Source: an uncultured delta proteobacterium (lineage in GTDB: Bacteria; Desulfobacterota; Binatia; DP-6). From it: a stretch of DNA of 64,000 bases. A program made the translations under genes and the position numbers. Shown piece after piece: positions 20,812-64,000 of this stretch; positions within the stretch are counted from its first letter, which is position 1, and every line of letters begins with the position of its first letter. The DNA is taken from contig CAWFFN010000007.1 of assembly GCA_963815115.1 (NCBI GenBank), positions 320,001-384,000 of the forward strand, in the 5' to 3' direction. Below the pieces are notes generated by a model that was not told the origin of the DNA, searched no databases, and was given only the letters and a program-made list of their open reading frames with translations.

Positions 20812-23480
20812 TCAGAGTCCTGCAACGGCCGTCATCGTCTTCGCGATCGCGTTGCGCAGGTCGCTGGCGGTGCTCGCGCCCGGCCTGGCCTTCGCGAGCA
20901 GCTTCATCAGGCTCTGGAGGTGGGCGTTCACGAACTTGCGCGCCTTCAACGCCTTCTTGCCGGTCCCGGAGACCGCGGCAAGCTTCCCCCTGACCTGCTT
21001 CACGACCTTGCCCATCTTCTTCTTGGAGCCCTTTTTCAGATCCGCGGCCCCGCTCAGCAGCTGCTCGATCGTCGCGAGGCGGCACTCGACGCCAGGCTCG
21101 CCGACGCGTGTGCTGGTCGCGCAGTGGAAGCCGGTGCCGTCGGGTTCGCAGTGGTCGCCGTCCGTGCAGGCGTCGCCGTCGTCGCAGGCGGGTGCGGCGC
21201 CCGTGACGGGTTCGCCGGTCGCTGGATCGCAGGTTTCGGTACCGTTGCAGGCATTGCCGTCGTCGAACACCTTCGGTGCGTGGGTGCAGCCGCTGGCGGG
21301 GTTGCAGCCGTCGGTCGTGCACGGGCTGCCGTCGTCGCAGCTCGGCGGATTGCTGGGCGTGCAGACGCCGGCGACACACGCGGTCGAGCCGCACAGGCTC
21401 GGGTCGCAGTCGGTGGCTTTGGTGCACGGGATGCAGTGGTCGGGGTCGGTCTCGCCTCCCGCGGCGCAGACCTCGCAGTGGCCGGCGACGGGCGTGCAAT
21501 CGCTCTTGCAGGTGTCGCACTCGTTGGTGTTGGCGTCGTCGCACAGCTCCCCGGCGTCGCCGTCGGCGTGGCCGTCACCGCACCAGTGAAGCGTGCAGGT
21601 CGCCGAGCACGGGTTCCCGAGCACGCCGTTCTGCGCGCCGTTGTCGCACTCGTCCTCCGGATCGACGACGCCGTTGCCACACACCTCCACCTGGCAGGTG
21701 GACGAGCAGCCGTCGCCGTCCGTCTGGTTCAGGTCGTCGCACTGCTCGCCGCAGTCCGGCTGGGTGGTGCCGTTCCCGCACACGCAGGGCCGCGGAGCCA
21801 CGAGGGAGCACTGGGCGGTGCAGGGATCCCCCTGCATTCCGTTTTTGTTGCCGTCGTCGCAGTCCTCGTTGCAGTCCTGGACGCCGTTGCCGCACTGCTC
21901 GATCTGACAGGTCGAGGAGATGCCGTCGCACGAGTTGGCGTCGCCCTTGTCGTCCTGCTCGCCGCACTCGACCATGCCGTCGCCGCACACGTTGTCGAAC
22001 CGCGAGCAATCAGCCTTGCAGCCGTCGCAGCTGACGGTGTTGCCGTCGTCGCAGGCTTCGCCGGGGTCGACGTTCCCGTCGCCGCACCGATGGCACGACT
22101 GACAGTCCGGGGAGCAGGTACCGCCCTGAGGACAGGTGCGCCGTCGCACAGCTCGCCCTGATCGACCTTGCCGTCGCCGCAATCGGCCGGAGGAGGCGGT
22201 GGCGGGAAGCCGCCGCAGGGAGTGAGGTTGGGGTTGATCTGCGCGCCCGAGTTGGGGTTGATCACGCCCGTGATGCTGATCGGATCGCTCGCGCTCCGGT
22301 ACTCGATGAAGTTGGCGGTGTCCGCGAGCATCGTGCCGGCCACCGTCAAGGCGCCGCCGCTCTCCAGCGAATTGGTCCCGCCGAGCCCGCGGGCGTCGAG
22401 CGTGATGCCGGCAGGGAGGGTGAGCGCGCACCAGGCGGTCGCATCGACCGAGCCGCCGAAGCCGTCGGAGCCGCCGTGCACGTCGATCGAGCCGAGGGTG
22501 AGGTTGCGATGCGCCTCGAACTCGAGGCTGCCGCCCTGGCTCTGCAGGCCGTTCCCCGAGGCATCGATCGCCACGCTCTGCGTGATGTCGTGCTCGGCGG
22601 TGAACGTCGCGCTGCCGCCGGCACCGTCCGACGGGACGCCGGTCATCTGGAGAAACGCGCCGATCTGGATCGAGTCGCCGGAGTTGACCGTGATGTCGCC
22701 CGCGTCGCCGACGTCCTCGCCGCTCGAATCGCCGCGCACGTTGATGTTGCCGCCGAGAATCACCGAGCCGTCGGCATCGATCTCGAGCGCGCCCCCGAAG
22801 CCGCCCCCGGTGATCGCGCTGAGGTCGATCTTGCCGGTCGTGGTGACGGCGCCGCCCGCCGTGAGGAGGATGCCCTCGACGTCGGAATCGCCGCCGCTGC
22901 TGTCGATGGTGCCGGAGAGGCCGAGGTTGGCCGCCGCGTCGATCTCGAGCGTCCCGGGGCTGCCGTCCCGCCCGCCGTGGATGTCGATCTCCCCCGGGAT
23001 GACGATGCTCGCGCCGGTCACCGTGATGTCGCCCGCGAACTGATCCACCGCGGTCGAGGACGCGTCGAGGATGCCCTCGACGACCACGTTCCCCATGGCG
23101 TTGAGGGTGATGCTGCCGGCGGCATCACCCGCGGTATCGATGCGCGAGATCGAGTTGCCGTCGCGGCGCACGGTGATGGTTCCCGTGGCGTCCACCTCGA
23201 TCATGCCGCCGGCGCCGAGGAGGCCGCTGGCGGGCTCCAGGGTGAGGTTGCGGACCTTGATGACCATGCTGCCTGCGCCGACGACGAGCTTGGCGCCGCC
23301 CATCAGCTGGAGATCGCGGGCACCGAAGTCCAGGATCGAGCCGGGGGTGACGATTCGCGTCGTGTTCTTCTGGACCACGCACGGGTTGCCGGAACAGATC
23401 TCATCGGCGGTGGTCGCCTCGGCCGCAGGGACGAGGCCGAGGCATAGCAGGAGGACTGTGGCGACGAGGGCGGTCCGCAT
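20812..23480 (-). pseudogene. Secreted Cys-rich repeat protein A (Gly-rich beta-helix, Myxococcus-type Cys repeats, basic C-terminal domain), frameshifted at about 22138-22139
   Basis: Signal peptide MRTALVAT..AEA. Track ORF 21729..23681 reads ..DCGDGKVDQGELCDG and ORF 20812..22431 continues TCPQGGTCSPDC, with a 2-nt remnant GC between them. Contains repeated CG(D/N)G..E.CDDGN. About 890 aa if joined. May be an assembly error. Confidence 0.85.
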
Positions 23481-23493
23481 GATCTGTTGTCTC

Positions 23494-23509
23494 AGCAACG
23501 GGTGTGCCC
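23494..23509 (-). promoter_or_regulatory. sigma54 (-24/-12) promoter of Cys-rich protein A
   Basis: Minus strand reads GGGCAC-ACCCG-TTGCT with exact GG-N10-GC spacing. The -12 C lies 15 nt before ATG 23480. Confidence 0.7.
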
Positions 23510-23704
23510 GCGTCGGGGGTGGCGGCACGCATCCGCTCCGCGTCCGGTGGGCTTCCCGGCGCATCATGGATGCACGCCGCGTGGCAGGTGTGCAAGCGTC
23601 AGGCGCGGGTGCGCGAGGGCGCCAGCGCGAGGCGGAGCGCACACGCCAAGGCACCGGAACGGCGAGCCTTGCTCCACCCACCCGAGGCGTGTAGCGAGGA
23701 ACGG

Positions 23705-23944
23705 ATGGTGGATACCGAGGACATCAGGCGCCGCATCGAGGCGGCGCTTCCCGACGCGCGGGTCGAGGTGGCCGACACGACCGGCGCCGGAGATCACTTC
23801 GAGGTCCACGTGGCCGCCGCGGCGTTCACGGGACTGGGCCTCGTCGAGCAGCATCGACTGGTCTATGGCGCGCTGGGTGATCTGATGCCGCGGATCCATG
23901 CGCTGGCATTGCGAACCGAAACACGAGGGGAGGGAGCGCGATGA
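23705..23944 (+). CDS. bolA: BolA family protein
   Basis: GDHFEV, F.GLGLVEQHRLVY.ALG, IHALALRT. RBS GAGGA. Coupled to grxD. Confidence 0.93.
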   Translation: MVDTEDIRRRIEAALPDARVEVADTTGAGDHFEVHVAAAAFTGLGLVEQHRLVYGALGDLMPRIHALALRTETRGEGAR

Positions 23945-27636: not shown

Positions 27637-30523
27637 ATGCGGATGCTCGCCCTCACCCGAGGGCTGTTCCCGATCGCTCTCCTCGCCGCCGCCGGTCCGG
27701 TCGCCGCGACGGTTCCCCAGGATCTGTCCCCTGGCGCAGGATCCCTGCGTCGTGAATTCCGCCCTCACGCTCACGCCGGGTTCGGTCATCGACCTCGGTG
27801 GCCGCGGCCTCCAGTTCGGTCCGGCGGCGCGGGTGATCGTGGGCGCGGGCGACGTGGTGATCTTGGCGGGACCGGTCCAGGTGCAGGCGGGAGCGCGCAT
27901 CGCGGGAACCGCGGGTCTGGCGCTCACGACTTTCGAGATCGACTCGACCGGCGCCATCCGGGTCGACGCCACGGGCGGTACGCGGGGGCGCATCGATCTG
28001 TCGGCCGACGAGATCGCCGGGTCGGTGACCCTGAGCGCGCAGACCGGCATCACCGTGACGGGCGACCTCATCGCGGACGGGACCACCCCGGACGGCAGCG
28101 GCGGCTCGATCAATCTCCTCACCGCCGGCGGCGACGTCCTCGTGAGCGGATCGCTCTCGGTCCAGGGCGGCTCGAACGCCGATGGCGGTCTCATCTTCGC
28201 CCAGGCCCCCGGCAGGGTCGACCTGTCGCAGGTGGTCGACATCTCCGGCGGCGACTTCGGCGGCGGTGAGCTCGACATCGCCGCCGGCGGGGACGCCATC
28301 GTGCGCCAGAGCGTCAATGCGAGCGGGGGTGGTCTCTCCGGCGACGGCGGGACGCTGAGCATCGATGCGGGGGGCAGCATCACCGTGCTCGGGCAGTTCA
28401 ACGGCACCGCCTCCGGTGACAGCGACGAGGGCGGCGGGTCCGGTGGGGACATGGAGCTCACCGCGGGGCAGGACGTGACGGTGAGCGGGTTGGTCGACCT
28501 GACGGGTGGGTTTCCCGACGGCGAGGGCGGCAGCTTCACCATCGACAGTGGCGGCAGCTTCACCCAGACCCAGTTCGTGAACCTGCTCGGGAACGGGATC
28601 GACGGCTGTGGCGGCTCGGTGGACATTCGGGCCGCGCGCGACATCACCACGAACCGCTACGACGTCAGCGGCGGCTCGTGCGGCGCCGGCGACGTCACCA
28701 TCCTGGGGCTCGGCACGGTGACGATTCCCGCCCAGATCGTCGCCGACGGCACCACCGGCATCTCCCAGGGCGGCATCATCAGCCTCCAGGGTCGTGACCT
28801 GGTGACGAACGACCTGGTGCGCGCCAACGGCGGCAGCCAGAGCTTCGGCGGCGTGGTCATGCTGCTGGGGTGCAACGTGACCGTCAACCAGTCGAGCGAG
28901 ATTCGGGTGCTCGGCGCGACCGGTAGCATCACCGTCACCGGGAGCGGAAGCATCGCCGTCCGGGGCAAGCTGACCGCCGGTGCGGGCGGCACCAACGCGA
29001 TCGTGTATCGCGATCCCGCGATGCCACCGACGATCACCGGACAGGTGAGTCCGCCACCGGTGAAGACGGTCGATCCGACGCTGCCGCCATGTGCAGGGGA
29101 GACGGCCGCCTGCGGGAACGGAACGCCCGACCCGGGCGAGGAGTGCGACGACGGCAACACCACCTCGTGCGACGGCTGCAGCGCGAGCTGCCGGCAGGAG
29201 GGCTGCGGCAACGGACGCGTGGAGTGCAGCGAGGAGTGCGACGCCGGGGCGCAGAACGGACAGCCGGGAAGCGGATGCGACGCCACGTGCAACGTCGTCC
29301 CGCTGCCGGGCGGGTTGCTCCTGTTTCCCGGGGGGCACTCGCGCAATTCGTGCATGGCGGAATGGCGCATCAAGCTGGCGAACGGGCTGATGAGCGGCGG
29401 CTTCCCGCTCATGAGCCAGCCCTGCGTCGACGGCGACCCCGGCTGCGATCGGGACGGGGCCACGGACGGGAAGTGCGTGTTCGAGACGGCGGTCTGCACC
29501 CACGTCACCGATGCGCGCCTTCCCGGCTGCAATCCGCTCCAGGTGGAGTCGATCTCCGTCAACAAGCCGGGTCCGCTCAGTGCGAGCGCGCCCGTCGACG
29601 TCGCCAACGCGAACGCCCTGGTCGGTGCGCTGGCGGGGCTGGGATTGACGGTGAAGGCGGGGACCAACGTCCTGGTTCCCGGCACGCCGGACGTCCAGCA
29701 CGACCATTGCACGGCGACCACCGGCATCACGGTGCCTCACCCGGCCGGCCTGTCGGCTGCCAAGACGCTCAACATCGCCGCCCGCGACGGCCTCGGTGGC
29801 CGCATGCACTCGAATCAGGTGACCCTGATCTGCGGCCCGAACACCGCGGTGTGCGGCAACGGACACATCGAGGTCGGCGAGCAGTGTGACGACGGGAACG
29901 ACGTCGCCTGTGACGGGTGCACGCCCACCTGTCGGGTCGAGCGGTGCGGCGACGGCATCGTCGAGTGCGGCGAGGGATGTGACGACGGCCCGGCCAACGG
30001 CACGCCGGGGAGCATGTGCACGGCGGCCTGCACGCAGATCGTGCCTCCGCTCCGCATTCCGGGCGGCGGCTCGAAGCGTTCCGACTGCCAGCTCGAGACC
30101 GCGATCGACCTCCAGGACGTGGTCGTGAAGGGAGATGGGACGCCGTCGAACAGGCAGGTCTGCGTCGACAACGACCCTGGCTGCGACTTCGATCCGGTGC
30201 CGGGCAGCTGTCGCTTCCATGCCTTCCTGTGCTTCGGCGGCGCCGACGACCGCCTGGCGTGCGCGGCAGACTCCGTCGCGTCCATCGAGGTGCGCAAGCC
30301 GAGCGCGAAGGACCAGGGTCCGGCGGGAGCACTGCGCCAGGCGGTGCTCCAGCGCCTGGCGGCATTCTCGCTCCCGCTTCCGGCGGGGGAACGGTGCACC
30401 CAGCGGATCGACATCGACGTGCCGGCGGGCAAGAAGCAGGCGTCCCTGGCGCTGCGCACGCGCGACACGCTCGGCGACAAGGACAGCGACTCGATCAAGC
30501 TCAGATGCTCGCCGGCGCCCTGA
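27637..30523 (+). pseudogene. Secreted Cys-rich repeat protein B (Gly-rich beta-helix, Myxococcus-type Cys repeats, duplicated Cys domain), frameshifted at about 27724-27727
   Basis: Signal peptide MRMLAL..PVAA-TVPQDL is in one frame and CPLAQDPCVVNSAL.. continues in the 27752..30523 frame. Restoring TG (CTGT to CTGTGT) gives DLCPLAQDPCVV, matching EICSGNPCVV of protein A. May be an assembly error. Confidence 0.85.
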
Positions 30524-34193: not shown

Positions 34194-34209
34194 CGCAAGA
34201 CACATGCCA
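34194..34209 (-). promoter_or_regulatory. sigma54 promoter of Cys-rich protein C
   Basis: Minus strand reads TGGCAT-GTGTC-TTGCG. The -12 C lies 15 nt before ATG 34180. Partial IHF-like AATCAAGGGTATTA at 34246-34259. Confidence 0.8.
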
Positions 34210-34363
34210 CGGAGTGATTCCATTCGCCGACGGAAAGCATCGTTAAATCAAGGGTATTACGCTCCATCCCACTGCGCTGCCGCATGGTGTCGCGCAGCCG
34301 CAAGGGGCGTTGGGACTAGAGGGCCGGACGCGAGTCGGGAAGGCCGGTGCGACCGGCGGGCGG

Positions 34364-34425
34364 CCAGAAACTGCCTTCGATTTTCTGGACTCGACTTGCA
34401 CTCATGCATCCGTCAGGCGTGCAAG
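34364..34425. promoter_or_regulatory. Two adjacent 7-bp inverted repeats, candidate enhancer sites between divergent sigma54 promoters
   Basis: CCAGAAA(34364)-N11-TTTCTGG(34388) and CTTGCAC(34395)-N17-GTGCAAG(34425). Confidence 0.4.
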
Positions 34426-34497
34426 ACATGCCCCCTCCCTTTGGTCGCATACGGACGGCCCTTTGGGGCGGTGGCTAGTGGCCAAAGATCGTCGTGA

Positions 34498-34510
34498 AAT
34501 CAATAAGTTG
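34498..34510 (+). promoter_or_regulatory. IHF-type binding site
   Basis: AATCAATAAGTTG is an exact WATCAANNNNTTR match, 35 bp upstream of a -24 box. Confidence 0.7.
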
Positions 34511-34545: not shown

Positions 34546-34561
34546 TGGCATGTTTTCTGCT
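34546..34561 (+). promoter_or_regulatory. sigma54 promoter of Cys-rich proteins D-E
   Basis: TGGCAT-GTTTT-CTGCT with GG-N10-GC spacing and an upstream IHF consensus. Confidence 0.72.
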
Positions 34562-52560: not shown

Positions 52561-53345
52561 GGGCGCGCGCGGCCATCTTCTGTCTCCACGACATCGTGCG
52601 AGACGAGCATCTCGCCGAGGTGCCGCTGACGCACCGGCCGTATGCGCTTCCGCCCCAGGAGTTCCGGTCCCATCTGATGGCGGCCCAGGCGGGAGCCCCT
52701 CGGGCCGTCACCGTGGCGCAGGTTCCGGACGAGCTCGCCGGACGCTTCTTCTGCCTCACCTTCGACGACGGAAGTGCCAGCGACTATGGCGAGGCCTTCC
52801 CGGCACTGCTCGAGTTCGGTCTGCGCGCGACGTTCTTCGTGGTGCCGACCCTCATCGGGACCGCCGGCTACGTCACCTGGGCGCAGCTGCGCGAGATGGC
52901 CGCCGCCGGCATGGAGATCGGCAGCCACTCGATGACGCACCCCTTTCTTCACCGGCTGGACGCGGCCGGACTGCGGCGGGAGTTCGGGGAGTCGAAGTCC
53001 ATCCTGGAGGACCGGCTCGGGGCAGCGGTGCGCAGCGCCTCGCTGCCGCGAGGCTGGGAGCCGCCCGGCCTCGAGCAGGTCCTGACCGGCCTCGGCTACC
53101 GTGCCTTCTGCACCAGCCGTGTCGGCTGGTGGCATCCGGGCGACCGTCCGCTCGCCATCCCGCGCGTCGCGGTGCGCCGGGGCATGGCGCCCGACGAGTT
53201 CGTCGCGATCGCGGCCGGCGCGCCCCGCGCGCTCTGGCGCCTCACCGCCGTCGAGGCCGCGAAGAACGCGGCCAAGGCGTGCCTGGGCCACGGCGGCTGG
53301 CAGCGGCTGCGACAGCCCCTGCTGGCCCTGCGGGAGCGCTGGTGA
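52557..53345 (+). CDS. Polysaccharide deacetylase (CE4)
   Basis: LTFDDG, ATFFV, EIGSHSMTHP. Confidence 0.9.
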   Translation: MRARAAIFCLHDIVRDEHLAEVPLTHRPYALPPQEFRSHLMAAQAGAPRAVTVAQVPDELAGRFFCLTFDDGSASDYGEAFPALLEFGLRATFFVVPTLIGTAGYVTWAQLREMAAAGMEIGSHSMTHPFLHRLDAAGLRREFGESKSILEDRLGAAVRSASLPRGWEPPGLEQVLTGLGYRAFCTSRVGWWHPGDRPLAIPRVAVRRGMAPDEFVAIAAGAPRALWRLTAVEAAKNAAKACLGHGGWQRLRQPLLALRERW

Positions 53346-54484
53346 TCGCCGAGATTTCATTCTTCGGCGCTCTGGCCGTCATCGCCTGGGTGTACATCGG
53401 CTACCCCGTGGTGCTGTGGGCGATGGCGATGGTGCGCCGCAGGCCGGTGGGGCGACGCGCGATCGAGCCGTCCGTCTCCCTCATCATCTGCGCCTACAAC
53501 GAGGAGCGCGACATCAGGCGGAAGCTCGAGGAGACGCTCGCCAGCGACTATCCCGCCGACCGCCTCGCGGTGATCGTCGCGTCGGATGGCTCGACCGATC
53601 GGACGGACGACATCGTGCGCGAGTTCGCGCCGCGCGTCCGGCTGCTGCGGGTCGAAGGGCGAGGCGGCAAGACGCTGGCGCAGAATGCCGCCGTCGCGTC
53701 GGCCCGGGGCGACATCCTGGTCTTCTCCGACGTCACGACGGTCTACGAGCCGGGCACCATCCGGGCTCTGGTCGAGAACTTCGCCGATCCCCACGTCGGC
53801 TGCGTGGGGGGCGACCTGCACTATCTGAAGGAGGCGCGCAACCCGTCGGCCGAGGGGCGTGCGCTCTTCTGGAGCTACGAGCGTCAGCTGCGCATCTGGG
53901 AGAGCCAGGTGCACTCGATCATCGGCGTGGCGGGCTGCGTCTACGCCATGCGGCGCGCTCTCTACCAGCCGCTGGATGCCGGCGCGATCAGCGACTTCAT
54001 CCAGCCGGGCAAGGTCACGGAGCGGGGTCACCGGACCGTGCTCGAACCCGCGGGCGTGGCGTACGAGCCGGTCGAGTCGCAGTCGCTGGGGGAGGAGCTC
54101 TACCGCCGGGCGCGAGTCATCACCCGCGGGCTGCGCGGAGCCTTCCACATGCCCGCGCTCCTGAACCCGCTGCGCCATCCCTGGTTCGCGACTTTGCTCT
54201 GGTCGCATCGCGTGCTGCGCTGGCTCGTGCCGGTGTTCCTCCTCGTGCTGCTGGCGGCGAGTGCGGCGCTGGCAGGGCAGGGTGGCCTCTATCGCCTCGC
54301 GCTCGCCGGACAGCTCGCGATCTACGGCACCGGCCTGGTCGCGTTCGGGCTCGAGCGCGCGCGCGTGCGCGTGCCCGGGCTCTTCATCCCGCTCTACTTC
54401 TGCGTCGTGAACCTCGCGCCGCTTCTTGCCCTCGCCTGGCTGGCTCGCGGCGAGCGCAAGGTGGTCTGGGAGACCGGCCGATGA
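53342..54484 (+). CDS. Glycosyltransferase family 2 (membrane-bound)
   Basis: YIGYP, IICAYNEE, SDGSTDRT, GK..AQN, FSD, ISDF, RRARV, with TM helices. Confidence 0.93.
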   Translation: MIAEISFFGALAVIAWVYIGYPVVLWAMAMVRRRPVGRRAIEPSVSLIICAYNEERDIRRKLEETLASDYPADRLAVIVASDGSTDRTDDIVREFAPRVRLLRVEGRGGKTLAQNAAVASARGDILVFSDVTTVYEPGTIRALVENFADPHVGCVGGDLHYLKEARNPSAEGRALFWSYERQLRIWESQVHSIIGVAGCVYAMRRALYQPLDAGAISDFIQPGKVTERGHRTVLEPAGVAYEPVESQSLGEELYRRARVITRGLRGAFHMPALLNPLRHPWFATLLWSHRVLRWLVPVFLLVLLAASAALAGQGGLYRLALAGQLAIYGTGLVAFGLERARVRVPGLFIPLYFCVVNLAPLLALAWLARGERKVVWETGR

Positions 54485-55503
54485 GCGACGGCGCACGCCG
54501 ACTCGCCCCGCTGATGAAGCGCGTGCTGTTCCACTCCGGCCTGCTCGCGCTCGCGCGGCTGGCGCGCCAGCGGGTTCGCGGAGTCGTCCTGCGCTACCAC
54601 GCCCTGACCGAGGGGCTCGACGAGGTACTCTACGCGGCACCCGACATCTGCCTCCCGGTCGACGCGTTCCGGCTCCAGATGGCGTTCGTCAAGCGTGCCT
54701 ACCGGGTGGTGTCCCTCGACGAGCTGGTGCGGGTGCTGGAGCGGGGTACGCGGCTCCCGCCGCGCGCGCTGGCCGTGACGTTCGACGACGGCTACGCCGA
54801 CAATCACCGGCTGGGCCTCCCGGTGCTCCGGAAGCTCGGCCTGCCGGCGACGGTCTACGTCGCGACGGGAGCGGTGGGCGGCCAGGCGCCGTTCTGGGTC
54901 GGCGCGGTGCGCGCGCTGGTGCTGCGTGCGCCCGGGACGGTCCTCGAGATACCGGGACAGGCGGCGATCGCGCTCGGTGTGCCAGGCCGGCGCGAGGCGG
55001 CGGCGAGGGCGCTGACCCGGGCGCTGGTTCCGCTGTCCGCGCCGGCGCGCGCCGAAGTCCTGGCGAGCGCCGCGGCACGAGCCGGGCTCGACCTGAGCGT
55101 CCTGCTGGCCGGGACCATGCTCACGTGGGAGGAGATCCGGGAGCTGCATGCGGCCGGCTGGACGATCGGAGCGCACACGGTGACGCATGCGAACGTGGCG
55201 CTTGCCACGCCCGAGCAGGCCGAGGCCGACATCGTGGGCTCGCGCGATGCCCTGGCGGCCGCGCTCGGAACGTCGATCGAGCATTTCTGCTACCCGAACA
55301 GTGGCGGTCAGCATCGCTACGTATCGCCCGACGTCGTCGGGATCCTGCGACGCCACGGCTTCCGCTCGGCCACGACCTCACGGCCGGGCGCGCTGCGTCC
55401 AGACGCCGACCGCTTCCAGCTGCCCCGGCTCGGGGTGAGTCCGCGGCTCGGCCCGGTCGTCGAGCTGGCCACCGCGCTCGAGCGCCAGCGGCTGGCGGCC
55501 TGA
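54481..55503 (+). CDS. Polysaccharide deacetylase (CE4)
   Basis: LRYH, AVTFDDGYADN, MLTWEEI, IGAHTVTH, FCYPN. Confidence 0.92.
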   Translation: MSDGARRLAPLMKRVLFHSGLLALARLARQRVRGVVLRYHALTEGLDEVLYAAPDICLPVDAFRLQMAFVKRAYRVVSLDELVRVLERGTRLPPRALAVTFDDGYADNHRLGLPVLRKLGLPATVYVATGAVGGQAPFWVGAVRALVLRAPGTVLEIPGQAAIALGVPGRREAAARALTRALVPLSAPARAEVLASAAARAGLDLSVLLAGTMLTWEEIRELHAAGWTIGAHTVTHANVALATPEQAEADIVGSRDALAAALGTSIEHFCYPNSGGQHRYVSPDVVGILRRHGFRSATTSRPGALRPDADRFQLPRLGVSPRLGPVVELATALERQRLAA

Positions 55504-55519
55504 CGGGAGACATCGACGC

Positions 55520-57439
55520 ATGTGCGGGATTGCCGGCGAGCTGCGACTGACACCCGGGGAACGGCCCAGTGCGGCGCGGGTGCGGGCGATGTGCGACGTC
55601 ATGGTCCATCGCGGCCCGGACTCGTTCGGCGAGTTCTCCGACGGCGAGGCGGCCCTCGGAATGCGCCGGCTCGCCATCGTCGACGTCGCTGGCGGCCAGC
55701 AGCCCCTGGGCAACGAGGACGGCTCCGTGCAGGTGGTCTGCAACGGTGAGATCTACAACTCCCCGGCGCTCGCTCGCGAGCTCGAGGCCCGCGGCCACAC
55801 GCTGCGCACCCGCTCCGACGTCGAGGTGATCGCGCACCTCTACGAGGAGGACGGCGTCGACGTCGCGGCGCGCCTCGACGGGATGTTCGCATTTGCCCTG
55901 TGGGACACGAAGGCGCACCGCCTCGTCCTCGGCCGCGACCGCGTCGGCATCAAGCCGCTCTACGTGACCCGCCTCGGCGATCGTCTGGTGTGGGGCTCGG
56001 AGGCGAAGTGCCTCCTCGCCGCCGGCCTCGATCCGCAGCTCGACCCGCAGGCGCTGCACGACTATCTCACCCTCGGCTACGTCGCGGGCCCGGCGTCCAT
56101 CTTCGCCGGCGTCCGGCAGCTCGCTCCCGGGCACGTCCTCGTCGCCGAGCCGGGGAAGGAGCCGGTCACCCGGCGCTACTGGTCGCTCGAGGGGCACGTC
56201 GCGGGACGCGAGACGCGGAGCGATGCCGACTGGGAGGCCGAGCTGGTCTCGACGCTGCGCGGCGCGGTGCAGAGCCATCTCATGGCGGACGTTCCGCTCG
56301 GCGTGTTCCTGTCCGGCGGCCTCGATTCGGGCAGCATCGTCGCCCTCATGCACGAGCTGGGGGTGCACCCGATCCGCACCTTCACCATCGGCTTCGAGGA
56401 GAAGAGCTTCAGCGAGCTCGACGAGGCGCGACAGGTCGCGACGCGCTACGGGACCGAGCATCACGAGCTGATCGTCCGGCCCGACGCGATCTCGCTGCTG
56501 CCGCGGCTCGTACGCAGCTTCGACGAGCCCTTCGCGGACTCCTCGGCCATCCCCGTCTTCCACGTCTCCGAGCTGGCCCGGCGCCACGTCACCGTGGTGC
56601 TGTCGGGCGAGGGGGGCGACGAGGTGCTCGCCGGCTACGAGACCTACCGCGCGCGCCGTGTCGCGGCGCTCTACGCGCGCCTGCCGCAGGCGATCGGCCG
56701 GCGGCTCGTCCCGGCGGTGGTGCGGCAGCTTCCGGTCTCGCATGCCAAAGTCAGCTTCGACTACAAGGCGAAACGCTTCGTCACCGGCGCCTATCTGCCC
56801 CCGGCCGCCGGCCACCTCTGGTGGAAGACGATTCTCGACGAGGACGGCAAGGCGGCGCTCTACGGAGACGGTAGGGACGGCCGAGCCCCGACGGTGCGGC
56901 TCTTCGAGGACCTCTTCTCGGAGAGCGACGGCGACGAGCTCGACCGGCTGCAATTTGTCGACACGAAGCTTTACCTGCCGGCCGACATTCTGGTTAAGGT
57001 CGACCGGATGAGCATGCAGCACTCGCTCGAGGCGCGCGTTCCCTTCCTGGACCGCTCGATGCTCGAGCTGTCGCGCCGCATTCCCTCGCGCCTGCGGCTG
57101 CGCGGGATGACGACCAAGTACCTGTTGCGCCGTGCCATGGCGGAACGGCTTCCGCCGGCCGTCCTGAACGGCAAGAAGCGCGGCTTCAACGTACCCATGC
57201 CGGCGTGGCTGGCCGGCGGCCTGCGTGATTTCACGCGTGACGTCCTGGCGCCCGACCGCGTTCGGCGCCAGGGGATCTTCCGCCCGGCGGCGGTCGAGCG
57301 ACTGGTGGCGGAGCACCTGAGCCGTCGGATCGATCACAGCCGCGCAATCTGGACCCTGCTCGTGCTATCGGTCTGGCAGGACGAGTTCCTTCGCGACGTT
57401 CCTCCCGTGCCCCAGCGGGTGGCCGCCGCCTCGCTCTGA
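55520..57439 (+). CDS. asnB: Asparagine synthase (glutamine-hydrolysing) family amidotransferase
   Basis: MCGIAG, HRGPD, RRLAIVD, NGEIYN, RDRVGIKPLY, FLSGGLDS, SGEGGDE, KVDRMSM.HSLEARVPFLD, KRGF. Confidence 0.95.
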   Translation: MCGIAGELRLTPGERPSAARVRAMCDVMVHRGPDSFGEFSDGEAALGMRRLAIVDVAGGQQPLGNEDGSVQVVCNGEIYNSPALARELEARGHTLRTRSDVEVIAHLYEEDGVDVAARLDGMFAFALWDTKAHRLVLGRDRVGIKPLYVTRLGDRLVWGSEAKCLLAAGLDPQLDPQALHDYLTLGYVAGPASIFAGVRQLAPGHVLVAEPGKEPVTRRYWSLEGHVAGRETRSDADWEAELVSTLRGAVQSHLMADVPLGVFLSGGLDSGSIVALMHELGVHPIRTFTIGFEEKSFSELDEARQVATRYGTEHHELIVRPDAISLLPRLVRSFDEPFADSSAIPVFHVSELARRHVTVVLSGEGGDEVLAGYETYRARRVAALYARLPQAIGRRLVPAVVRQLPVSHAKVSFDYKAKRFVTGAYLPPAAGHLWWKTILDEDGKAALYGDGRDGRAPTVRLFEDLFSESDGDELDRLQFVDTKLYLPADILVKVDRMSMQHSLEARVPFLDRSMLELSRRIPSRLRLRGMTTKYLLRRAMAERLPPAVLNGKKRGFNVPMPAWLAGGLRDFTRDVLAPDRVRRQGIFRPAAVERLVAEHLSRRIDHSRAIWTLLVLSVWQDEFLRDVPPVPQRVAAASL

Positions 57440-57474: not shown

Positions 57475-59382
57475 GTGATTGCTCTCGAAGCCAAGGAGTT
57501 CAAGGTCGCCCCCCCTCCGGAGGAGTTCCGCGACCTCGGGCTGCGGGCCGACTCGGCATGGAGCCGCCTCTGGCAGCTCGCGGTTGCTGCCATCGGACTC
57601 CTGCTCCTCCTGCCCGTGTCGATGGCGATCGCGGTCGCCACCAAGCTGACGAGCCGCGGCCCCGTCCTCTACAAGGGGACCCGCATCGGCCGGAACATGG
57701 AGCCCTTCACGATCTTCAAGTTCCGGACGCTCCTGGTCGACGCCGAGCAGCGCATCGGCGCCCGCCTGCTCACGCCCGGTGATCCCCTCTACACGCCCGT
57801 CGGCCGCTTCCTGAAGCGCACCAAGCTGGACGAGATTCCGCAGCTGCTGAACGTCGTGCGCGGGGACATGAACATGGTCGGCCCGCGACCGATCCGGCCG
57901 GTGTTCCTCGCCACCTCGATGCGCGAGATCCGCAACTACGCGGCGCGCTTCGTCGTCCGGCCGGGGATGACGGGCCTGGCGCAGCTCCGCGGCGGCTACT
58001 TCACGCACCCGCGCGACAAGCTGCGCTACGACATCCTCTACATCCGCAACCGCGGCTTCTGGCTCGACTTGAAGCTCGTGGTCGCGACGTTCGTGAAGCT
58101 CCTCAACCGGTGGCTCACGCTCGGCCTGCTCCTGGCGCTCATCTTCCTGAGCGCGTCGTTCGTGCCGGCCGTGTTCCGTTCGCCCTTCGAGCTCGAGCTG
58201 GGCGGATTCCACCTCTCGCCCTTCGAGGGGCTCGGCCTCCTGCTGGCGGCGTTCGTGCTCGTCCGTCAGATCCCCGTCCACCAGCTCTATCTCTATCGCA
58301 CGCCCACCAACCGTCCGATGGTCTGCTTCGTGGTATTCTCCCTGCTCGCGGGCCTCGTCGCCGGTGATCTGGTGCCGCGGCTGCGGGACGCGGCGTACTT
58401 CACGGCGTCGGGCTTCCTGCTCTTCTTCCTGGTGGTGAGCGGCGAGGTGACGGCGGGCTTCGCACGCCGGGCAACCCGGCTGGTCGCGCTGGCGGCGGTG
58501 GCGGTCGCGGTGGTCGGCATCCTCCAGCTGGCGCTGGAGGCGCATGCCCTGGCGGCGGCGGCCGGCGGCTCGGACGGCGGCCTGCCCCGGGTCGCGTCCA
58601 CGCTCGGAAGTCCGGTCGTGCTGGCCGCGTACCTGGTGCTGGGCATCCCGCTCGTGTTCGTCGAGCTGGTATGTGCGGAGCGACGCGAGGAGCGCGATTT
58701 CTGGCTCATCTGCACCACGCTCGTCGTGGTCGCCGTGCTGCTCACCCAGACCCGCCTGTCGCTGCTTGCGCTCTGGCTGACCGGGGTCGTGTTCGCGTGG
58801 CGCGTCTCCCGGCGAGCCTTCCGGCTCGTCCTCGGCGCCGCCCTCGCGCTCCTCGGCGTGCTGGTGATGTCGGGGGCGCTGCGTCTGTCGCCGGCCGACA
58901 TCGGCGCCGAATTCTCGCGGCGGCTCACCGTGACCGCGGCGACGGTATCGGAAGAAGCCATGGGCCTGCGTGGCCTCGTCGGGACCGATCCCGGCAAGGG
59001 CGCAGTTGCCATGGTGGAGGTCGAGCACGGGCCCGACGGCGCCCCCGAACGGGTGCACAACGAGAACATGCACTTGACGCTGGTGCTCCGCACCGGCCTG
59101 ATCGGATGGGCGCTCATCATGTGGGTCATCGGCGCCGCGCTCGCCGGCATCTATCGCGGTAGCGGGGCGGTGAGTGACCGGCGCCTGGCGCTCACGCTCT
59201 GGGCGATCTTCTCCTCGGGCCTCGGCTTCCTCATCTCGATGAGCAACTTCAACGCCTTCTACAATCCGACGATCCAGATCATGTTCTGGGGACTGCTCGG
59301 AATCGGGACTGCGATCGCGACCCACTTCGGGGGCCGGCGGCCGCAGTTCAACGTGATCTACCGCTTCGGGCAGGGCGAATGA
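57475..59382 (+). CDS. Sugar transferase (phosphoglycosyl transferase) fused to an O-antigen ligase/Wzy-like domain
   Basis: The N-terminus has FTIFKFRT, KLDEIPQLLNV.RGDM.MVGPRP, RPGMTGLAQ and YDILY. About 430 aa of multi-TM sequence follows, with RVASTLGSP, LTQTR and ENMHL..RTGLIG. Confidence 0.88.
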   Translation: MIALEAKEFKVAPPPEEFRDLGLRADSAWSRLWQLAVAAIGLLLLLPVSMAIAVATKLTSRGPVLYKGTRIGRNMEPFTIFKFRTLLVDAEQRIGARLLTPGDPLYTPVGRFLKRTKLDEIPQLLNVVRGDMNMVGPRPIRPVFLATSMREIRNYAARFVVRPGMTGLAQLRGGYFTHPRDKLRYDILYIRNRGFWLDLKLVVATFVKLLNRWLTLGLLLALIFLSASFVPAVFRSPFELELGGFHLSPFEGLGLLLAAFVLVRQIPVHQLYLYRTPTNRPMVCFVVFSLLAGLVAGDLVPRLRDAAYFTASGFLLFFLVVSGEVTAGFARRATRLVALAAVAVAVVGILQLALEAHALAAAAGGSDGGLPRVASTLGSPVVLAAYLVLGIPLVFVELVCAERREERDFWLICTTLVVVAVLLTQTRLSLLALWLTGVVFAWRVSRRAFRLVLGAALALLGVLVMSGALRLSPADIGAEFSRRLTVTAATVSEEAMGLRGLVGTDPGKGAVAMVEVEHGPDGAPERVHNENMHLTLVLRTGLIGWALIMWVIGAALAGIYRGSGAVSDRRLALTLWAIFSSGLGFLISMSNFNAFYNPTIQIMFWGLLGIGTAIATHFGGRRPQFNVIYRFGQGE

Positions 59383-61364
59383 GCGATCGACCGTCTCGGC
59401 TCGGCGGCGCGATCCGCGGACTCGGCCTCGGGGCGCTCGCCGGCGCGCTCTGGTTCGCCCTGGAGGTGATAGGGAATCGGCTCGGGGGCGGCTTCGTCCC
59501 CGTGCCGCTCCTGATCGCGATGGCGCAGCTCGACCTCGGCCTCGGCGCGGTTGCCGGCGCCGTGCTCGGTGCGTTGTTGCCGCGCGGCGGCCTCGCGCTC
59601 GGACTCGCACTCGCCATGGCCTATGGGTTTCTACGCGTCTTCGAGCCGCCGGGCATGGGGGCCGAGGCGGTCTTCGTGCTGGTTGCCGCCGTCCTGGTCC
59701 TCGGTGCCGTGCGCCTCGCGGACCGCGACGGGACGGGGGTCCTCGCCTTCGTGCACGCAACGCTGCTCGGCGCCCTGGGAGTGCTGGGGTTGGAGACCGT
59801 GCTCGACCAGATGCACGCTCACGCGCTGCGCGGCCTGCGCCTGCCCGTCGCGATCGCGGTTCTTCCGGCCCTGCTGGTGGCCGCGGACTGGCTCGTCGGC
59901 CTGGTGATCCGCCGCCGCGGCATGCGGCTCGCCATCGAGACGGTCGCGGTGCTCGTCACGTGCGCGATGCTCGGCCGGCCGCTCTCGACGGCCCCGCTCG
60001 AGAGCCGCGTGGTCACGGCGGTGCCGCCTCCGGCCGGCACCCCGGACATCTTCCTGGTCTCGCTCGACACGACGCGCGCGGACCACCTCTCGCTCTACGG
60101 CTACGGGCGGCCGACCTCGCCCAACTTGGAAGCGCTGGCGTCGGATGCGCTCGTCTACACCCAGGCACGCTCGGCGGCGGGCTGGACGCTGCCCGGCCAC
60201 GCCTCGATGCTCACGGGCATGTACCCGAGCCGGCACGGCGCGCACCTGGCCGGCGGATGGCTGCCGGGGGAGTCGATCGACGGCCGGCGCAACGTCGCCT
60301 TTCCGCTCGCCGCCGACAAGGTGACGCTGGCCGAGGCGCTGCGCGACCGCGGCTACACCACCGCCGGCTTCGTCGCGAACTTCTCCTATCTCTACCGTGA
60401 TTTCGGCCTGGCCCAGGGCTTCTCGCTCTACGAGGATGCGCCGGGGTTGCTGCTGCGGGTGCGTCCGCCCGCGGTGCGCTTCGCCCAGCGCTTCTCGCCC
60501 GGATTCTGCCTCAAGCCCTATCGCACCGCGCGGGACATCAACCGCCTCGCCCTCGACTGGCTGGACCAGGCGCCTTCGGGCCGACCGGTGTTCGTGTTCG
60601 TGAACTACATGGAGCCGCACCAGCCATGGCTGGCGCCCCCTCCCCACGACCGCTGGGTGTCGGAGTTGCCCCAGGCGCGCGCCCTCGCGACCAAGGACCT
60701 CTATACCCACGAGGTGAAGAACTTCACCCCCGAGGAGATCACCTTCATCCAGGCGAACTACGACGGCCAGGTGGCCGCCATGGATGACGCCCTCGGCGAG
60801 CTGGTTGCGGAGCTGAAGGCGCGCGGGCGCTACGAGCGGTCGCTCATCATCGTCACCGCCGACCACGGCGAGCTGCTCGGCGAGCACGGCTTCGTCGGTC
60901 ACATGGGTCGGATGCTCTACGAGCCCCTCCTGCACATCCCTCTGGTGGTCAAGTTCCCCGGTGCCGACCACCCGCGCGGCCGGGTGGACGGCCCGGTGCA
61001 GACCGTCGACGTCACGCCCACCGCGCTGCACGAGGCCGGCGCCGCGCTGCCGCCGGACGTCCAGGGGCAGGACCTTCGCCACGTGACCCGTCCGAGCCTG
61101 GCCGAGGAGGACATCAATCCCTTCCTGGTGGCCGACTACGGAGAGACCTACGACCGCGCGGTGCGCGTGCTGTTCGACGGCAGCTGGAAGCTCATCTCGA
61201 CGTCACGCGGGCAGCGGATGCTCTTCGATCTTTCCCGCGATCCGGGGGAGACCCACGACCTCGCCGCGGCGGAACCCGAGCGGGTCGACGAGCTCGCGCG
61301 CCGCCTCGAGGATCGCATGAGCACCATGGTCGCCACGGCCGAACCGACCAGGCAGGTGAACTAG
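59379..61364 (+). CDS. Membrane-anchored sulfatase-like hydrolase/transferase
   Basis: About 7 N-terminal TM helices, then SLDTTRADH, WTLPGHASMLTG, NYMEPH.P, YDGQV, TADHGE, GH, and LFDL..DPGE. Confidence 0.88.
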   Translation: MSDRPSRLGGAIRGLGLGALAGALWFALEVIGNRLGGGFVPVPLLIAMAQLDLGLGAVAGAVLGALLPRGGLALGLALAMAYGFLRVFEPPGMGAEAVFVLVAAVLVLGAVRLADRDGTGVLAFVHATLLGALGVLGLETVLDQMHAHALRGLRLPVAIAVLPALLVAADWLVGLVIRRRGMRLAIETVAVLVTCAMLGRPLSTAPLESRVVTAVPPPAGTPDIFLVSLDTTRADHLSLYGYGRPTSPNLEALASDALVYTQARSAAGWTLPGHASMLTGMYPSRHGAHLAGGWLPGESIDGRRNVAFPLAADKVTLAEALRDRGYTTAGFVANFSYLYRDFGLAQGFSLYEDAPGLLLRVRPPAVRFAQRFSPGFCLKPYRTARDINRLALDWLDQAPSGRPVFVFVNYMEPHQPWLAPPPHDRWVSELPQARALATKDLYTHEVKNFTPEEITFIQANYDGQVAAMDDALGELVAELKARGRYERSLIIVTADHGELLGEHGFVGHMGRMLYEPLLHIPLVVKFPGADHPRGRVDGPVQTVDVTPTALHEAGAALPPDVQGQDLRHVTRPSLAEEDINPFLVADYGETYDRAVRVLFDGSWKLISTSRGQRMLFDLSRDPGETHDLAAAEPERVDELARRLEDRMSTMVATAEPTRQVN

Positions 61365-61367
61365 CCG

Positions 61368-62471
61368 ATGCGTCCCAACGGAACCCAGGCCCCCTCCTCG
61401 CCGGAGCCGGCGCCGGGCGGCGTTCGCCGCGTCACCTCGATCGCGCGCTGGCTGTCGCGCCGCAAGACATCGGCGGCGCAGCCGGCGCCCGCCGTCTCGG
61501 TCGTGATGCCGGTCTACAACGCGGAGGCCACGCTCGAGGAGTGCCTCATGCGGCTCGGGCAGTCGACCTTCGAGGACTTCGAGGTCGTCGTCGTCGACGA
61601 CGGTTCGACCGACCGCTCGGCGGAGATCCTCGCGCGCTTCCCGGTCCGGGTGGTGCCGAGCCCGGGACGGGTGGGGCCCGCAGCGGCGCGCAACCTGGGA
61701 GCCCAGATCGCCACCGGAAAGATCCTCTTCTTCATCGATTCCGACGTGATGGTCCGGCCGGATACGTTGCGCCTGCTCGCGGACGGGTTCGAGCAGCCAG
61801 AGGTGGATGGCTTCTGCGGGGTTCAGGCAGCCGAGATGCGCCACCGGGACCTCGTGAGCCAGTACAAAAACCTGTGGATGCGGTGGACCTATTTGAGGCA
61901 GACTGGCGACGTGCCCCTCTTCTACACCACCGCCGCCGCCATCCGGCGGGATGCGTTCCTGCGTGTCGGCGGCTTCGACGTGGGCTACTCGACCCCCAAC
62001 GTCGAGGATACCGCCTTCGGGCAGAAGCTGAGGCGGCTGGGCATCCGGGTGCGCGTCCACCCCCTGCTCGAGGTCGAGCACGTCAAGCGCTACTCGCTCC
62101 GCGGCCTGCTGCGGACGGACTTCATGCGCGCCGTGTCGCTCACGCGCCTCAAGCTGCGCCACCCCACCGACCTGGCTGAGAACAACACCTCCGTGCCGTC
62201 GAGCTACATGGCGAGCGTACCGCTGAGCGGTCTCGCCGTGCTGGGGCTCACCGTCGGCCTGGGCGCCGGCTGGTGGCCGGCGACCGCCATCGGCCTGCTC
62301 GCCGCGGGCGGCGTGCTCGGGCTGAACTTCGGATTCCTGGAGGCCATCCGGCGCAGCGAGGGCTGGGCGCGCGTCCTGTCGGCGATCCCCCTGCTCTGGC
62401 TGGAGCTGCTGGTGGTGGGAGCGGGCACGGCCATCGGGCTGCTGTCGTTTCCGTTCGGCCGGCGCTACTGA
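61368..62471 (+). CDS. Glycosyltransferase family 2 with C-terminal TM helices
   Basis: SVVMPVYN, VDDGSTD, GPAAARN.G, FIDSD, VGGFD, VED. Confidence 0.93.
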   Translation: MRPNGTQAPSSPEPAPGGVRRVTSIARWLSRRKTSAAQPAPAVSVVMPVYNAEATLEECLMRLGQSTFEDFEVVVVDDGSTDRSAEILARFPVRVVPSPGRVGPAAARNLGAQIATGKILFFIDSDVMVRPDTLRLLADGFEQPEVDGFCGVQAAEMRHRDLVSQYKNLWMRWTYLRQTGDVPLFYTTAAAIRRDAFLRVGGFDVGYSTPNVEDTAFGQKLRRLGIRVRVHPLLEVEHVKRYSLRGLLRTDFMRAVSLTRLKLRHPTDLAENNTSVPSSYMASVPLSGLAVLGLTVGLGAGWWPATAIGLLAAGGVLGLNFGFLEAIRRSEGWARVLSAIPLLWLELLVVGAGTAIGLLSFPFGRRY

Positions 62472-62496
62472 GACCCGCGATCAAGGAGACATTGCG

Positions 62497-63726
62497 ATGG
62501 GCTACCTCGACTACCTGCAGCACGGGAAGAAGATCTTCCGCAAGAAGGGCGAGCTCCCCGTGTACCTGGTCTACTTCATCACCGACGCCTGCAATGCCAA
62601 GTGCAAGCACTGCCTGCTCGCCGACGGTGCCCACCCCGGGTGGGAAGAGCCCTCGATGACCTACCGCAAGCAGGAGCTCTCGCTCGAGGAACTGGACAAG
62701 GTCACGAGCAGCATCGGCAAGGGCAGCCTGATGTTTCTCCTGCCCACGGGCGGTGAGCCGTTCCTACGCAAGGACATCGGCGAGATCGTGAAGGTCTTCC
62801 ACAAGAACACCGGCGTGCGGAACGTGGGCATCCCCACCAACGGCAGCACGACGGCGCGCACCGTGTCCATCGTGAAGGACCTGTGCGAGAGCTGCCCGGA
62901 GCTCGACCTCCACATCGACGTCTCGCTCGACGGCGTGGGCGAGCTGCACGACGAGATCCGCGTCTTCCCCGGTCTCTTCAAGCGCTCGATCGAGACCTAC
63001 AAGGCGCTGCGCGAGATCGAGAAGCACTACAAGAACTTCAGCGTGCAGGTGGAGACCACGGTCTCCAAGCACAACGAGGACGTGCTGATCGAGAACTACG
63101 AGTGGTTCCGCCACAATCTCGACGTCGACACGGTGTTCACGCTGCTGACGCGGGGCAGCCCCAAGGAGCCGCTCGCCAAGTTCTTCGACGTCGAGAAGTA
63201 CCAGGCGTACGCCGATCACATGGAGCGCGAGTACAAGAGCGGCTCGCTCTCCGGGTACGATCATTTCCCGTTCGCCGACTTCATCAACGCGAAGCGGATC
63301 GTACGCCACAACCTGATCGCCAAGATCGTGCGCGAGAACGAGTACCAGATTCCGTGCTACGCGGGGAACCTGGGCGGCGCGATGTTCGCCAACGGCGACA
63401 TCTACCCGTGCGAGCTGCTCATCGATCGGAAGCTCGGCAACGTCCGCGAGGCCGGGTACGACTTCCGGAAGATCTGGTTCAGCGAGGCCGCCGAGGCGTC
63501 GCGTCGCTTCATCCGGGAGTCGAAGTGCTTCTGCACCTACGAGTGCTTCCTCACCATCAACATCCTGTTCAACCCGCGCATGATGCCGGCCGTCCTGAAG
63601 GAGTGGTCGAGTCTGAAGGCACGGAAGGCGTGGCGGAAGCTGACGGGCCGGCCGCCGGCGCGCGCCACGCTCGCCAGCTGCGGAACGGGTACCAGCAACA
63701 CGGCCACGGCCGCGGCCGACGCCTGA
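62497..63726 (+). CDS. Radical SAM protein with SPASM/twitch-like C-terminal domain
   Basis: CNAKCKHC, GGEPFLR, TNG, VSLDG..HD.IR, CYAG..NGDIYPC..CFC..EC. RBS AAGGAG. Confidence 0.93.
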   Translation: MGYLDYLQHGKKIFRKKGELPVYLVYFITDACNAKCKHCLLADGAHPGWEEPSMTYRKQELSLEELDKVTSSIGKGSLMFLLPTGGEPFLRKDIGEIVKVFHKNTGVRNVGIPTNGSTTARTVSIVKDLCESCPELDLHIDVSLDGVGELHDEIRVFPGLFKRSIETYKALREIEKHYKNFSVQVETTVSKHNEDVLIENYEWFRHNLDVDTVFTLLTRGSPKEPLAKFFDVEKYQAYADHMEREYKSGSLSGYDHFPFADFINAKRIVRHNLIAKIVRENEYQIPCYAGNLGGAMFANGDIYPCELLIDRKLGNVREAGYDFRKIWFSEAAEASRRFIRESKCFCTYECFLTINILFNPRMMPAVLKEWSSLKARKAWRKLTGRPPARATLASCGTGTSNTATAAADA

Positions 63727-63757
63727 GGGCGTAGCCGATCTCTGCGGGAGATTTCCG

Positions 63758-64000
63758 ATGTTTCGAGGCAAACGCATCTCCGTCGTCATTCCGTGCCACA
63801 ACGAGGAAGAGGGCGTCCGCACCACGATCGAGCAGATGCCGCCCATCGTGGACGAGGTGCTCGTGGTCGACAATGCGTCGACCGATCGCACCTCGGAGGT
63901 GGCGCAGTCGCTCGGCGCACGCGTCGTCTACGAGGCCCGCAAGGGCTACGGTCGGGCGTACAAGACCGGCTTCTCCGAGGCACGGGGCGACATCATCGTG
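63758..64000 (+). CDS. Glycosyltransferase family 2 (polyprenol-phosphate glycosyltransferase-like), truncated by window end
   Basis: MFRGKRISVVIPCHNEE..VVDNASTDRT..KGYGRA..ARGDIIV. RBS GGGAG. Confidence 0.88.
   Translation, partial: MFRGKRISVVIPCHNEEEGVRTTIEQMPPIVDEVLVVDNASTDRTSEVAQSLGARVVYEARKGYGRAYKTGFSEARGDIIV

Follow-up and report, generated by a model that had tools for sequence, protein, structure and literature searches.

We analysed a window of 64,000 nucleotides from a Candidatus Binatia genome (G000; 6.9 Mb, 70% GC, completeness rating 100%), corresponding to positions 320001-384000 of its contig C7, in which genes of secreted cysteine-rich (Cys-rich) proteins, a small regulatory cassette and an exopolysaccharide (EPS) operon lie side by side and may be joined into one sigma54 regulon by a candidate enhancer. 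Genes of G000 (n=6097) were called with our own hexamer script, so that starts may err and some upstream regions may have been missed. The genes and domains of the locus are listed below in window coordinates.

20812..23480, minus strand: Cys-rich secreted protein A, with signal peptide, Gly-rich N-terminal region, TIGR02232 and Dictyostelium-type repeats
20815..21099, minus strand: basic C-terminal four-helix domain (CTD-H) of A
27638..30523, plus strand: Cys-rich secreted protein B, without sigma54 box
32456..34180, minus strand: Cys-rich secreted protein C, with Dictyostelium-type repeats
34577..38918, plus strand: Cys-rich secreted protein D-E, one gene, about 1447 amino acids
38601..38912, plus strand: CTD-H of D-E (predicted structure, pLDDT 98)
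38999..40783, plus strand: secreted protein F (beta-helix and Cys repeats), 80 nucleotides past D-E, without a box of its own
40866..41435, minus strand: PEGA-domain lipoprotein, syntenic in the family
41531..41812, minus strand: HU-family gene transcribed away from the cassette; no second HU-type gene was found in G000
42171..42473, plus strand: conserved cassette protein of 100 amino acids, of no known family
42552..43427, plus strand: putative DHp-CA pseudo-kinase/phosphotransferase (start uncertain; conserved part from near 42816)
43442..44872, plus strand: REC-AAA+(GAFTGA)-HTH enhancer-binding protein (the activator)
45067..48227, plus strand: wza (start uncertain), chain-length protein, tyrosine autokinase
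48267..57439, plus strand: Wzy/O-antigen-ligase-family protein, GT4, AlkP-family enzyme, two polysaccharide deacetylases, GT2, AsnB-type amidotransferase
57475..64000, plus strand: priming glycosyltransferase fusion, membrane sulfatase-family protein, GT2, radical SAM/SPASM protein, GT2

A preliminary description of the window had named a GAFTGA activator, an HU gene and a set of EPS genes and had reported neither an exosortase nor a C-terminal transmembrane anchor among the window proteins, all of which was confirmed. Some gene models were revised. The reading frame of A is broken near 22125-22143, and its two open reading frames (ORFs) are one gene split by a frameshift, because the ortholog in G011 aligns over both frames. 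D and E, formerly described as separate, are likewise one gene, since orthologs align straight across the junction and an independent short-read contig (a single one, depth 2.7, agreeing at every other position over 254 bases) does not have base 35121; the break at this base is most likely an assembly insertion. B is probably frameshifted near 27725, close to its start, and seems to begin at 27638. F is probably co-transcribed with D-E.

The preliminary description had asked for a check of synteny in related metagenome-assembled genomes (MAGs); the series PEGA - HU - small gene - pseudo-kinase - activator - wza was found again in 16 family relatives (exceptions: G013 has no HU, and one contig stops before wza). 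Cys-repeat genes stand upstream of the cassette in most of these relatives and are few in three. Activator orthologs at E 1e-150 or better were present in 29/41 genomes, with 91-98% identity within the family; for comparison of their loci, 22 of 28 relatives with a match were used and a longer flank was added for 14. The genome encodes rpoN, and the activator has an intact receiver and helix-turn-helix (HTH) domain.

The 100-residue cassette protein has 623 relatives, Candidatus Binatia MAGs among them, with no family match and nothing at 0.8 or above in ESM Atlas. It should be added that a distant paralog lies at the far end of the EPS cluster (C7:399926-400207), and that a tandem pair occurs in G036. 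The next gene had been called kinase-like; this stands as regards its predicted DHp-CA fold and H-box His, invariant in 18/18 sequences, and fails as regards a recognisable N or G1 box (DxGxG) or sensor, none of which was seen by eye, and there was no Pfam match. It thus appears to be a sensorless phosphotransferase or pseudo-kinase, not a canonical histidine kinase. HU as a dedicated component of the system was considered and is not supported: the window carries the sole HU-type gene detected in G000, whose ihfA- and ihfB-like genes are located elsewhere.

The promoter elements before these genes are the following. IHF-like sites were assigned by mismatches to an IHF consensus.

23495..23509, minus strand: sigma54 -24/-12 box of A, 14 nucleotides before the ATG
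34195..34209, minus strand: sigma54 box of C
34246..34258, unstranded: IHF-like site for C, 2 mismatches
34498..34510, unstranded: IHF-like site for D-E, exact match
34546..34560, plus strand: sigma54 box of D-E
42075..42087, unstranded: IHF-like site of the cassette, 2 mismatches, poorly kept in relatives
42125..42139, plus strand: sigma54 box of the regulatory cassette
45000..45012, unstranded: IHF-like site for wza, 1 mismatch
45035..45049, plus strand: sigma54 box of the polysaccharide operon (wza)

All five boxes and the four accompanying IHF-like sites are thus located where they had been placed before; at the promoter of A an IHF-like site was looked for with the same consensus and none was found. 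Counted in the window alone, boxes with one mismatch to the consensus are not above chance (5 versus 3.4 expected; 27/100 shuffles reach 5). Their significance derives from the genome-wide excess of the correct spacer (83 forward upstream matches versus 5-9 for wrong spacers) and from conservation in orthologous upstream regions, the lack of which had been named earlier as a refutation. The cassette box is kept in 18/18 family orthologs (17/18 in one scan, the missing one, G017, having a box in another), the wza-unit box in 16/17 family loci, in six of which it precedes an inserted NusG-family gene, and the box of A in 9/10 A-type orthologs, with an A-like gene to which BLAST gave the label B counted among them. 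D-E-type rows have it in 14/19, C-type in 3/4 and F in 1/8 cases; B has no box in the window or in any of 12 genomes checked, and is probably outside the regulon. Across 19 family loci, a box is present at 28/62 Cys-type promoters versus 23/238 other genes. IHF-like sites with at most two mismatches accompany only 10/203 other sigma54 sites of G000, and in relatives were found at 9/16 Cys, 7/13 wza-unit and only 2/17 cassette promoters.

Start codons of A, C and D-E lie only 14-17 nucleotides past the -12 element (23481-23494, 34181-34194 and 34561-34576), and their mRNAs would therefore be near-leaderless. This short distance is kept in A orthologs and was seen at 41/208 sigma54 sites of the genome.

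Boxes alone nevertheless say little, because the G000 genome holds about 200 sigma54-like sites (208 by position weight matrix) and about 40 full-length sigma54 activators (among 49 PF00158 matches), with no genome-wide enrichment before Cys-rich genes. A more specific link is offered by a second element. A motif search on 13 cassette promoters returned ATCGTGCA-N4-TGC(G/A)A, far above shuffles, with forward matches at -78 and reverse matches at -74; as both span the same 20 bp, the element is a dyad, ending about 58 nucleotides before the box. We consider this TGCA-N4-TGCA dyad a new candidate enhancer shared by the cassette, wza and Cys-gene promoters. It was scored with a symmetric matrix trained on the cassette promoters of 15 relatives only, Cys and wza promoters being held out. 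The candidate dyads of the window are:

23598..23617, minus strand: weak candidate dyad for A, score 8.2
34393..34427, unstranded: two overlapping candidate dyads between the divergent C and D-E promoters, scores 8.3 and 11.7
42047..42066, unstranded: candidate dyad at the cassette, -78, weak (score 7.6), position kept in relatives
44924..44943, unstranded: candidate dyad at wza, -111, score 8.0 (11-17 at the same position in four relatives)

Among held-out promoters, the dyad exceeded within-promoter shuffles at 12/23 Cys and 9/14 wza-unit promoters versus 3/13 others, and box and dyad occurred together at 17/62 Cys-type promoters of the 19 family loci versus 9/238 others. With one representative per genus, the dyad was found at A in 4/5, at E in 5/7 and at the wza unit in 7/11 cases versus 22/203, the better promoter being taken for three genera; the alternative choice gave 3/5 for A and 4/7 for E, and since the result shifts in this way its p-values are not relied on. 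A de novo motif search on the Cys promoters gave an AT-rich IHF-like patch and not the dyad.

In G000, 10/208 sigma54 sites reached a score of at least 10 between -95 and -55, as against 0-1 for each of three control windows, and the sites so marked are enriched in secreted-like genes (5/9 versus 24/188). The marked genes include two genes with an NxxGxxAF 'choice-of-anchor' domain and CTD-H proteins at C9:558710 and 560912, and several encode Cys-poor secreted proteins; amtB-like and glnB-like sigma54 promoters score 3.2 and 6.7. A near-perfect dyad stands before C7:822547. Exact dyad-plus-box patterns in 25 genomes gave 19 and 23 matches versus 2 and 3 for reversed-pattern controls. As judged by eye, the 23 forward matches precede the cassette (12) and secreted proteins (11), and the 19 reverse matches 14-15 secreted proteins, one probable polysaccharide gene and one HU gene, with two unassigned. 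A search across the class yielded 17 new loci: nine before secreted proteins, four before the cassette, one before a glycosyltransferase and three spurious-looking. Furthermore, the pattern was detected in 13/33 genomes with the HTH of the activator versus 1/28 without it, the sole exception being 92% complete and from a family that has this HTH.

It should also be added that a NarX/NarL-like two-component pair (C7:839324-841684) has a sigma54 box and a strong dyad, and could possibly form a second tier of the regulon.

From these data we propose, with a probability of roughly 60%, a lineage-conserved sigma54 'surface-building' regulon of Candidatus Binatia, in which the activator would co-induce itself, one or two polysaccharide systems and a subset of secreted proteins. 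The regulon of Cys-rich proteins and EPS suggested earlier is thus retained in its boxes, synteny and shared candidate dyad, and given up as one defined by Cys-richness, because there is no genome-wide enrichment, B is never boxed and several dyad-marked genes are Cys-poor.

A number of observations weigh against this proposal. The enrichment of boxes before Cys-rich genes for which the preliminary description proposed a test was not obtained: only 8/112 such genes of G000, outside the window, have a box versus 187/3507 (p=0.25), and none of three thresholds gave significance (p 0.25, 0.08, 0.15). The window dyads are weak (7.6, 8.0, 11.7, 8.2 and 6.0 versus a control 90th percentile of 8.5), and in the G000 window only that of D-E stood above shuffles. 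The genomes behind the enhancer and conservation counts are kin and not independent; exact matches before the cassette are circular, since the motif was learned there, and the reverse pattern was shaped by G000 matches. In two of the 13 pattern-positive genomes the match (L180, L181) is probably noise, several activator-bearing families show no exact dyad-plus-box match, and about 40 other activators in G000 could bind the dyad. Moreover, in distant members of the class the activator is kept, and in most of them the wza cluster, without neighbouring Cys genes or CTD-H expansion, and most CTD-H genes lie outside the regulon, as only 6/33 outside the window have a box (p=0.007, a modest enrichment). 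On the polysaccharide side, a scan of the window genes and of 12 of the 20 genes downstream brought up no recognisable Wzx flippase, and the EPS operon encodes both charge-adding and charge-removing enzymes, so that the net charge of the polymer is not predictable.

The secreted proteins carry repeats of the TIGR02232/DUF4215 and Dictyostelium-type families, with a weak TolB-like propeller match in D-E. CTD-H, of about 100 amino acids, ends A and D-E, and in all about 39 proteins of G000 whose N-termini are unrelated. Its features are a single invariant Cys, a net charge of +4 to +15 in 36/37 copies, and a model of four helices at pLDDT 98. Family genomes hold 12-39 copies (7/7 genomes) versus 0-2 in 54 other genomes of the class; a profile search gave 2060 cluster representatives, and in 144 of the top 150 the domain lies at most 15 residues from the C-terminus. 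Pfam and NCBIfam gave no family beyond a weak touch of FIMAH (PF22888) in 3/37 copies, below the Pfam cutoff (best E 0.0074), and the fold search gave no match at E 0.001 or better, with only unnamed clusters in ESM Atlas. FIMAH and the C-terminal bundle of a Neobacillus GH92 enzyme (PDB 7nsn, PMC10167667), the latter among the fold matches with a TM-score of 0.63, resemble CTD-H as helical bundles of about 100 residues at the extreme C-terminus of unrelated secreted proteins; CTD-H differs in its invariant Cys and strongly basic character. According to the GH92 report, deletion of the bundle halved binding to yeast cell walls, with caveats by the authors (PMC10167667).

Other recurring C-terminal modules on secreted proteins of G000 include an acidic one with an LPGPG-type ending (n=29; e.g. 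C8:359867-369256) and several basic beta-type modules on 9, 8, 6 and 4 proteins. Between the Cys genes of the window (23705-32425) there are bolA-grx, a phosphotriesterase-like gene, two thiolases, a DUF35-like gene and a nitroreductase, in partial synteny, with all names except bolA and grx assigned by eye.

As regards the polysaccharide systems, Wza, Wzc, a priming glycosyltransferase and a Wzy-family protein of the Wzx/Wzy pathway are all present in the window, and the cluster runs on past its end. The priming glycosyltransferase (57475-59382) forms one protein with an O-antigen-ligase-like membrane domain; TIGR03097 matches it weakly, and such a fusion could glycosylate secreted proteins. 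A second polysaccharide cluster of about 58 kb (C7:1004000-1062658; wza, chain-length protein, ExeA-like ATPase, NusG-family gene, Wzx, Wzy) opens with a sigma54 box and two dyads, the dyad score of its wza being 14.3; it also holds a 2681-residue secreted DUF4082 protein with a box of its own. The sigma54 promoter and wza are separated by an inserted NusG/RfaH-like gene in six genomes of the family (e.g. L012:19597, L016:19501, L039:12477, L040:18229).

Searches for components of known anchoring systems separated the locus from these. PEP-CTERM signals (PF07589, TIGR02595) were absent from G000 and from 0/25 family genomes was any recovered, while the same search gave 3 and 10 in G033 and G039. 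The only exosortase of G000 is an XrtE on contig C9 (196.8 bits, cutoff 150; TIGR02602 28.8 bits versus a cutoff of 105.55), an XrtE-CAAX fusion with a small adjacent VPEID-like ORF (C9:1114596-1116447; L001:1167-3018) that was assigned by eye and has no NCBIfam match. As it lies on another contig beside its own putative substrate, unlinked to the window locus, it was rejected as a partner of the latter. Long-frame, XrtE-sized exosortase matches occur in 8/25 family genomes. Full-length EpsH together with PEP-CTERM was found among 41 genomes only in G033 and G039, where the window activator was not found; with only two genomes, mutual exclusion is not claimed. The window activator reaches 368.7 bits against PrsR (TIGR02915; cutoff 502.6, genome best 410.6), the best PrsK match (TIGR02916) in the genome 117.8 bits against a cutoff of 300, every XrtA-system model stays below cutoff for the window EPS genes, and so does TIGR03108 for the AsnB-type amidotransferase. 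MYXO-CTERM gave 0 in G000 in a search of unproven sensitivity, as no control genome passed the cutoff. The locus, while it would work like PEP-CTERM/PrsKR, is therefore not a member of that system, in agreement with the earlier view that it is no ordinary exosortase locus.

We envisage the following course of events. Phosphate from an upstream kinase would reach the activator's receiver domain by way of the sensorless pseudo-kinase, and the activator would bind the TGCA-N4-TGCA dyad. From the near dyad (-78) of its own cassette it may act directly, producing positive feedback, and from farther dyads (about -95 to -150) with the help of IHF bending. It would thus open the sigma54 promoters in front of its cassette and of the wza operon, as well as those of the second wza cluster, A, C, D-E(-F) and about ten scattered genes of secreted proteins. 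These proteins, having signal peptides and no membrane anchor, would probably be exported by Sec and type II secretion (two GspD-like secretins are encoded in G000). Stiffened by disulfides, they might be held non-covalently on the decorated polysaccharide, some perhaps via the basic CTD-H. We hold this matrix role with less confidence than the co-regulation. A still bolder reading, tentative and on balance doubtful, is that Binatia rebuilt the PEP-CTERM logic from non-homologous parts, with a new phosphorelay made up of the 100-residue protein, pseudo-kinase and activator, with a new enhancer, and with CTD-H docking passengers on polysaccharide in place of cleavage and anchoring.

Three other explanations have to be considered. 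The locus may be an ordinary activator-controlled EPS locus, in which the activator drives the cassette and wza only and the Cys genes answer to other activators; we find this unlikely. In its favour, the activator and the wza cluster are class-wide and the neighbouring Cys genes family-specific, housekeeping genes are interleaved with the latter, the many sigma54 sites and activators of the genome leave room for other regulators, dyad scores at A and C are unremarkable in G000, and there is the precedent of EpsI/Nla24, described as an NtrC-like regulator in an eps locus (PMC4877007). It does not explain that Cys promoters of different genera score above control for the held-out dyad, with positions that recur, or that exact dyad-plus-box matches in a distant family also precede secreted proteins.

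Alternatively, the regulon is real and serves the envelope or secretome in general (in predation, polymer degradation or a developmental coat), its proteins being released enzymes or adhesins and CTD-H a secretion signal or stability module. The unrelated N-termini of CTD-H proteins, most of them without a box, would fit such a programme, as would the existence of other C-terminal modules, the acidic one included, and the contact between protein and polysaccharide is only putative. We judge it quite improbable in view of the box and dyad at both wza clusters, the strongly basic charge of CTD-H and the contribution of the similar GH92 bundle to polysaccharide binding. An ordinary PEP-CTERM/exosortase A locus with anchor genes elsewhere or missed, to which the best scores of several EPS genes against XrtA-system models (below cutoffs) and the one exosortase-family gene might point, is largely refuted and very hard to credit, given the XrtE identity of that gene, the lack of PEP-CTERM in the family, the completeness rating of G000 and the PrsK and PrsR scores.

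As its activator is defined, an operator of 20 bp predicted and its target promoters listed, the surface-building regulon we favour is testable without culture. If CTD-H indeed holds proteins on polysaccharide, EPS-protein matrices would need neither PEP-CTERM nor sortase, and a sortase-free route of protein attachment to the matrix would exist; such docking would bear on how PEP-CTERM proteins retain EPS, and CTD-H would be a small portable tag for display on polysaccharides. Our literature search, which covered sources other than subscription journals and supplements, found no description of Binatia exopolysaccharide, of a secreted C-terminal domain or of sigma54 regulation in these uncultured soil bacteria, and nothing relevant on FIMAH.

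Among known systems, the putative phosphotransfer step recalls pseudo-histidine kinases. ChpT has a DHp-CA fold without intact ATP-binding motifs, and the cassette protein resembles it and DivL (4q20, among its fold matches) in both respects; it differs in being paired with a sigma54 activator and in having no Pfam match. The eps locus of Myxococcus xanthus with EpsI/Nla24 (PMC4877007) shares a REC-AAA+-HTH activator within an EPS locus, and secreted proteins of the Binatia locus carry Myxococcus-type TIGR02232 repeats, whereas the MYXO-CTERM anchor was not found in G000 by the search of unproven sensitivity mentioned above.

The closest likeness is to the PEP-CTERM/PrsK-PrsR-PrsT system. Both place an enhancer, in Binatia a candidate one, about 60 nucleotides upstream of a sigma54 box before scattered genes of secreted proteins, encode a REC-AAA+-HTH activator beside EPS genes, and use 'choice-of-anchor'-type passenger domains and a similar EPS kit (Wza, chain-length protein, tyrosine kinase, deacetylases, AsnB-type amidotransferase, and in the second cluster an ExeA-like ATPase). 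The Binatia locus differs in lacking PEP-CTERM or a transmembrane anchor and EpsH, and in having a soluble pseudo-kinase and the 100-residue protein in place of the membrane kinase PrsK. Its de novo motif is a TGCA dyad about 58 nucleotides from the box, whereas PEP-CTERM motif 1 lies on average 62.8 nucleotides before the box and ends in TTTACA (Haft et al. 2006, PMC1569441). For Aquincola, the published report describes an RpoN-dependent protein (pepA) that retains EPS on cells and EPS genes whose transcription appeared not to be regulated by RpoN1 (PMC9850573), so that sigma54 co-expression of the EPS cluster, taken as established for PEP-CTERM loci in the preliminary description, was overstated. 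Unlike these apparently RpoN1-independent genes, the wza operon of Binatia has a conserved sigma54 promoter.

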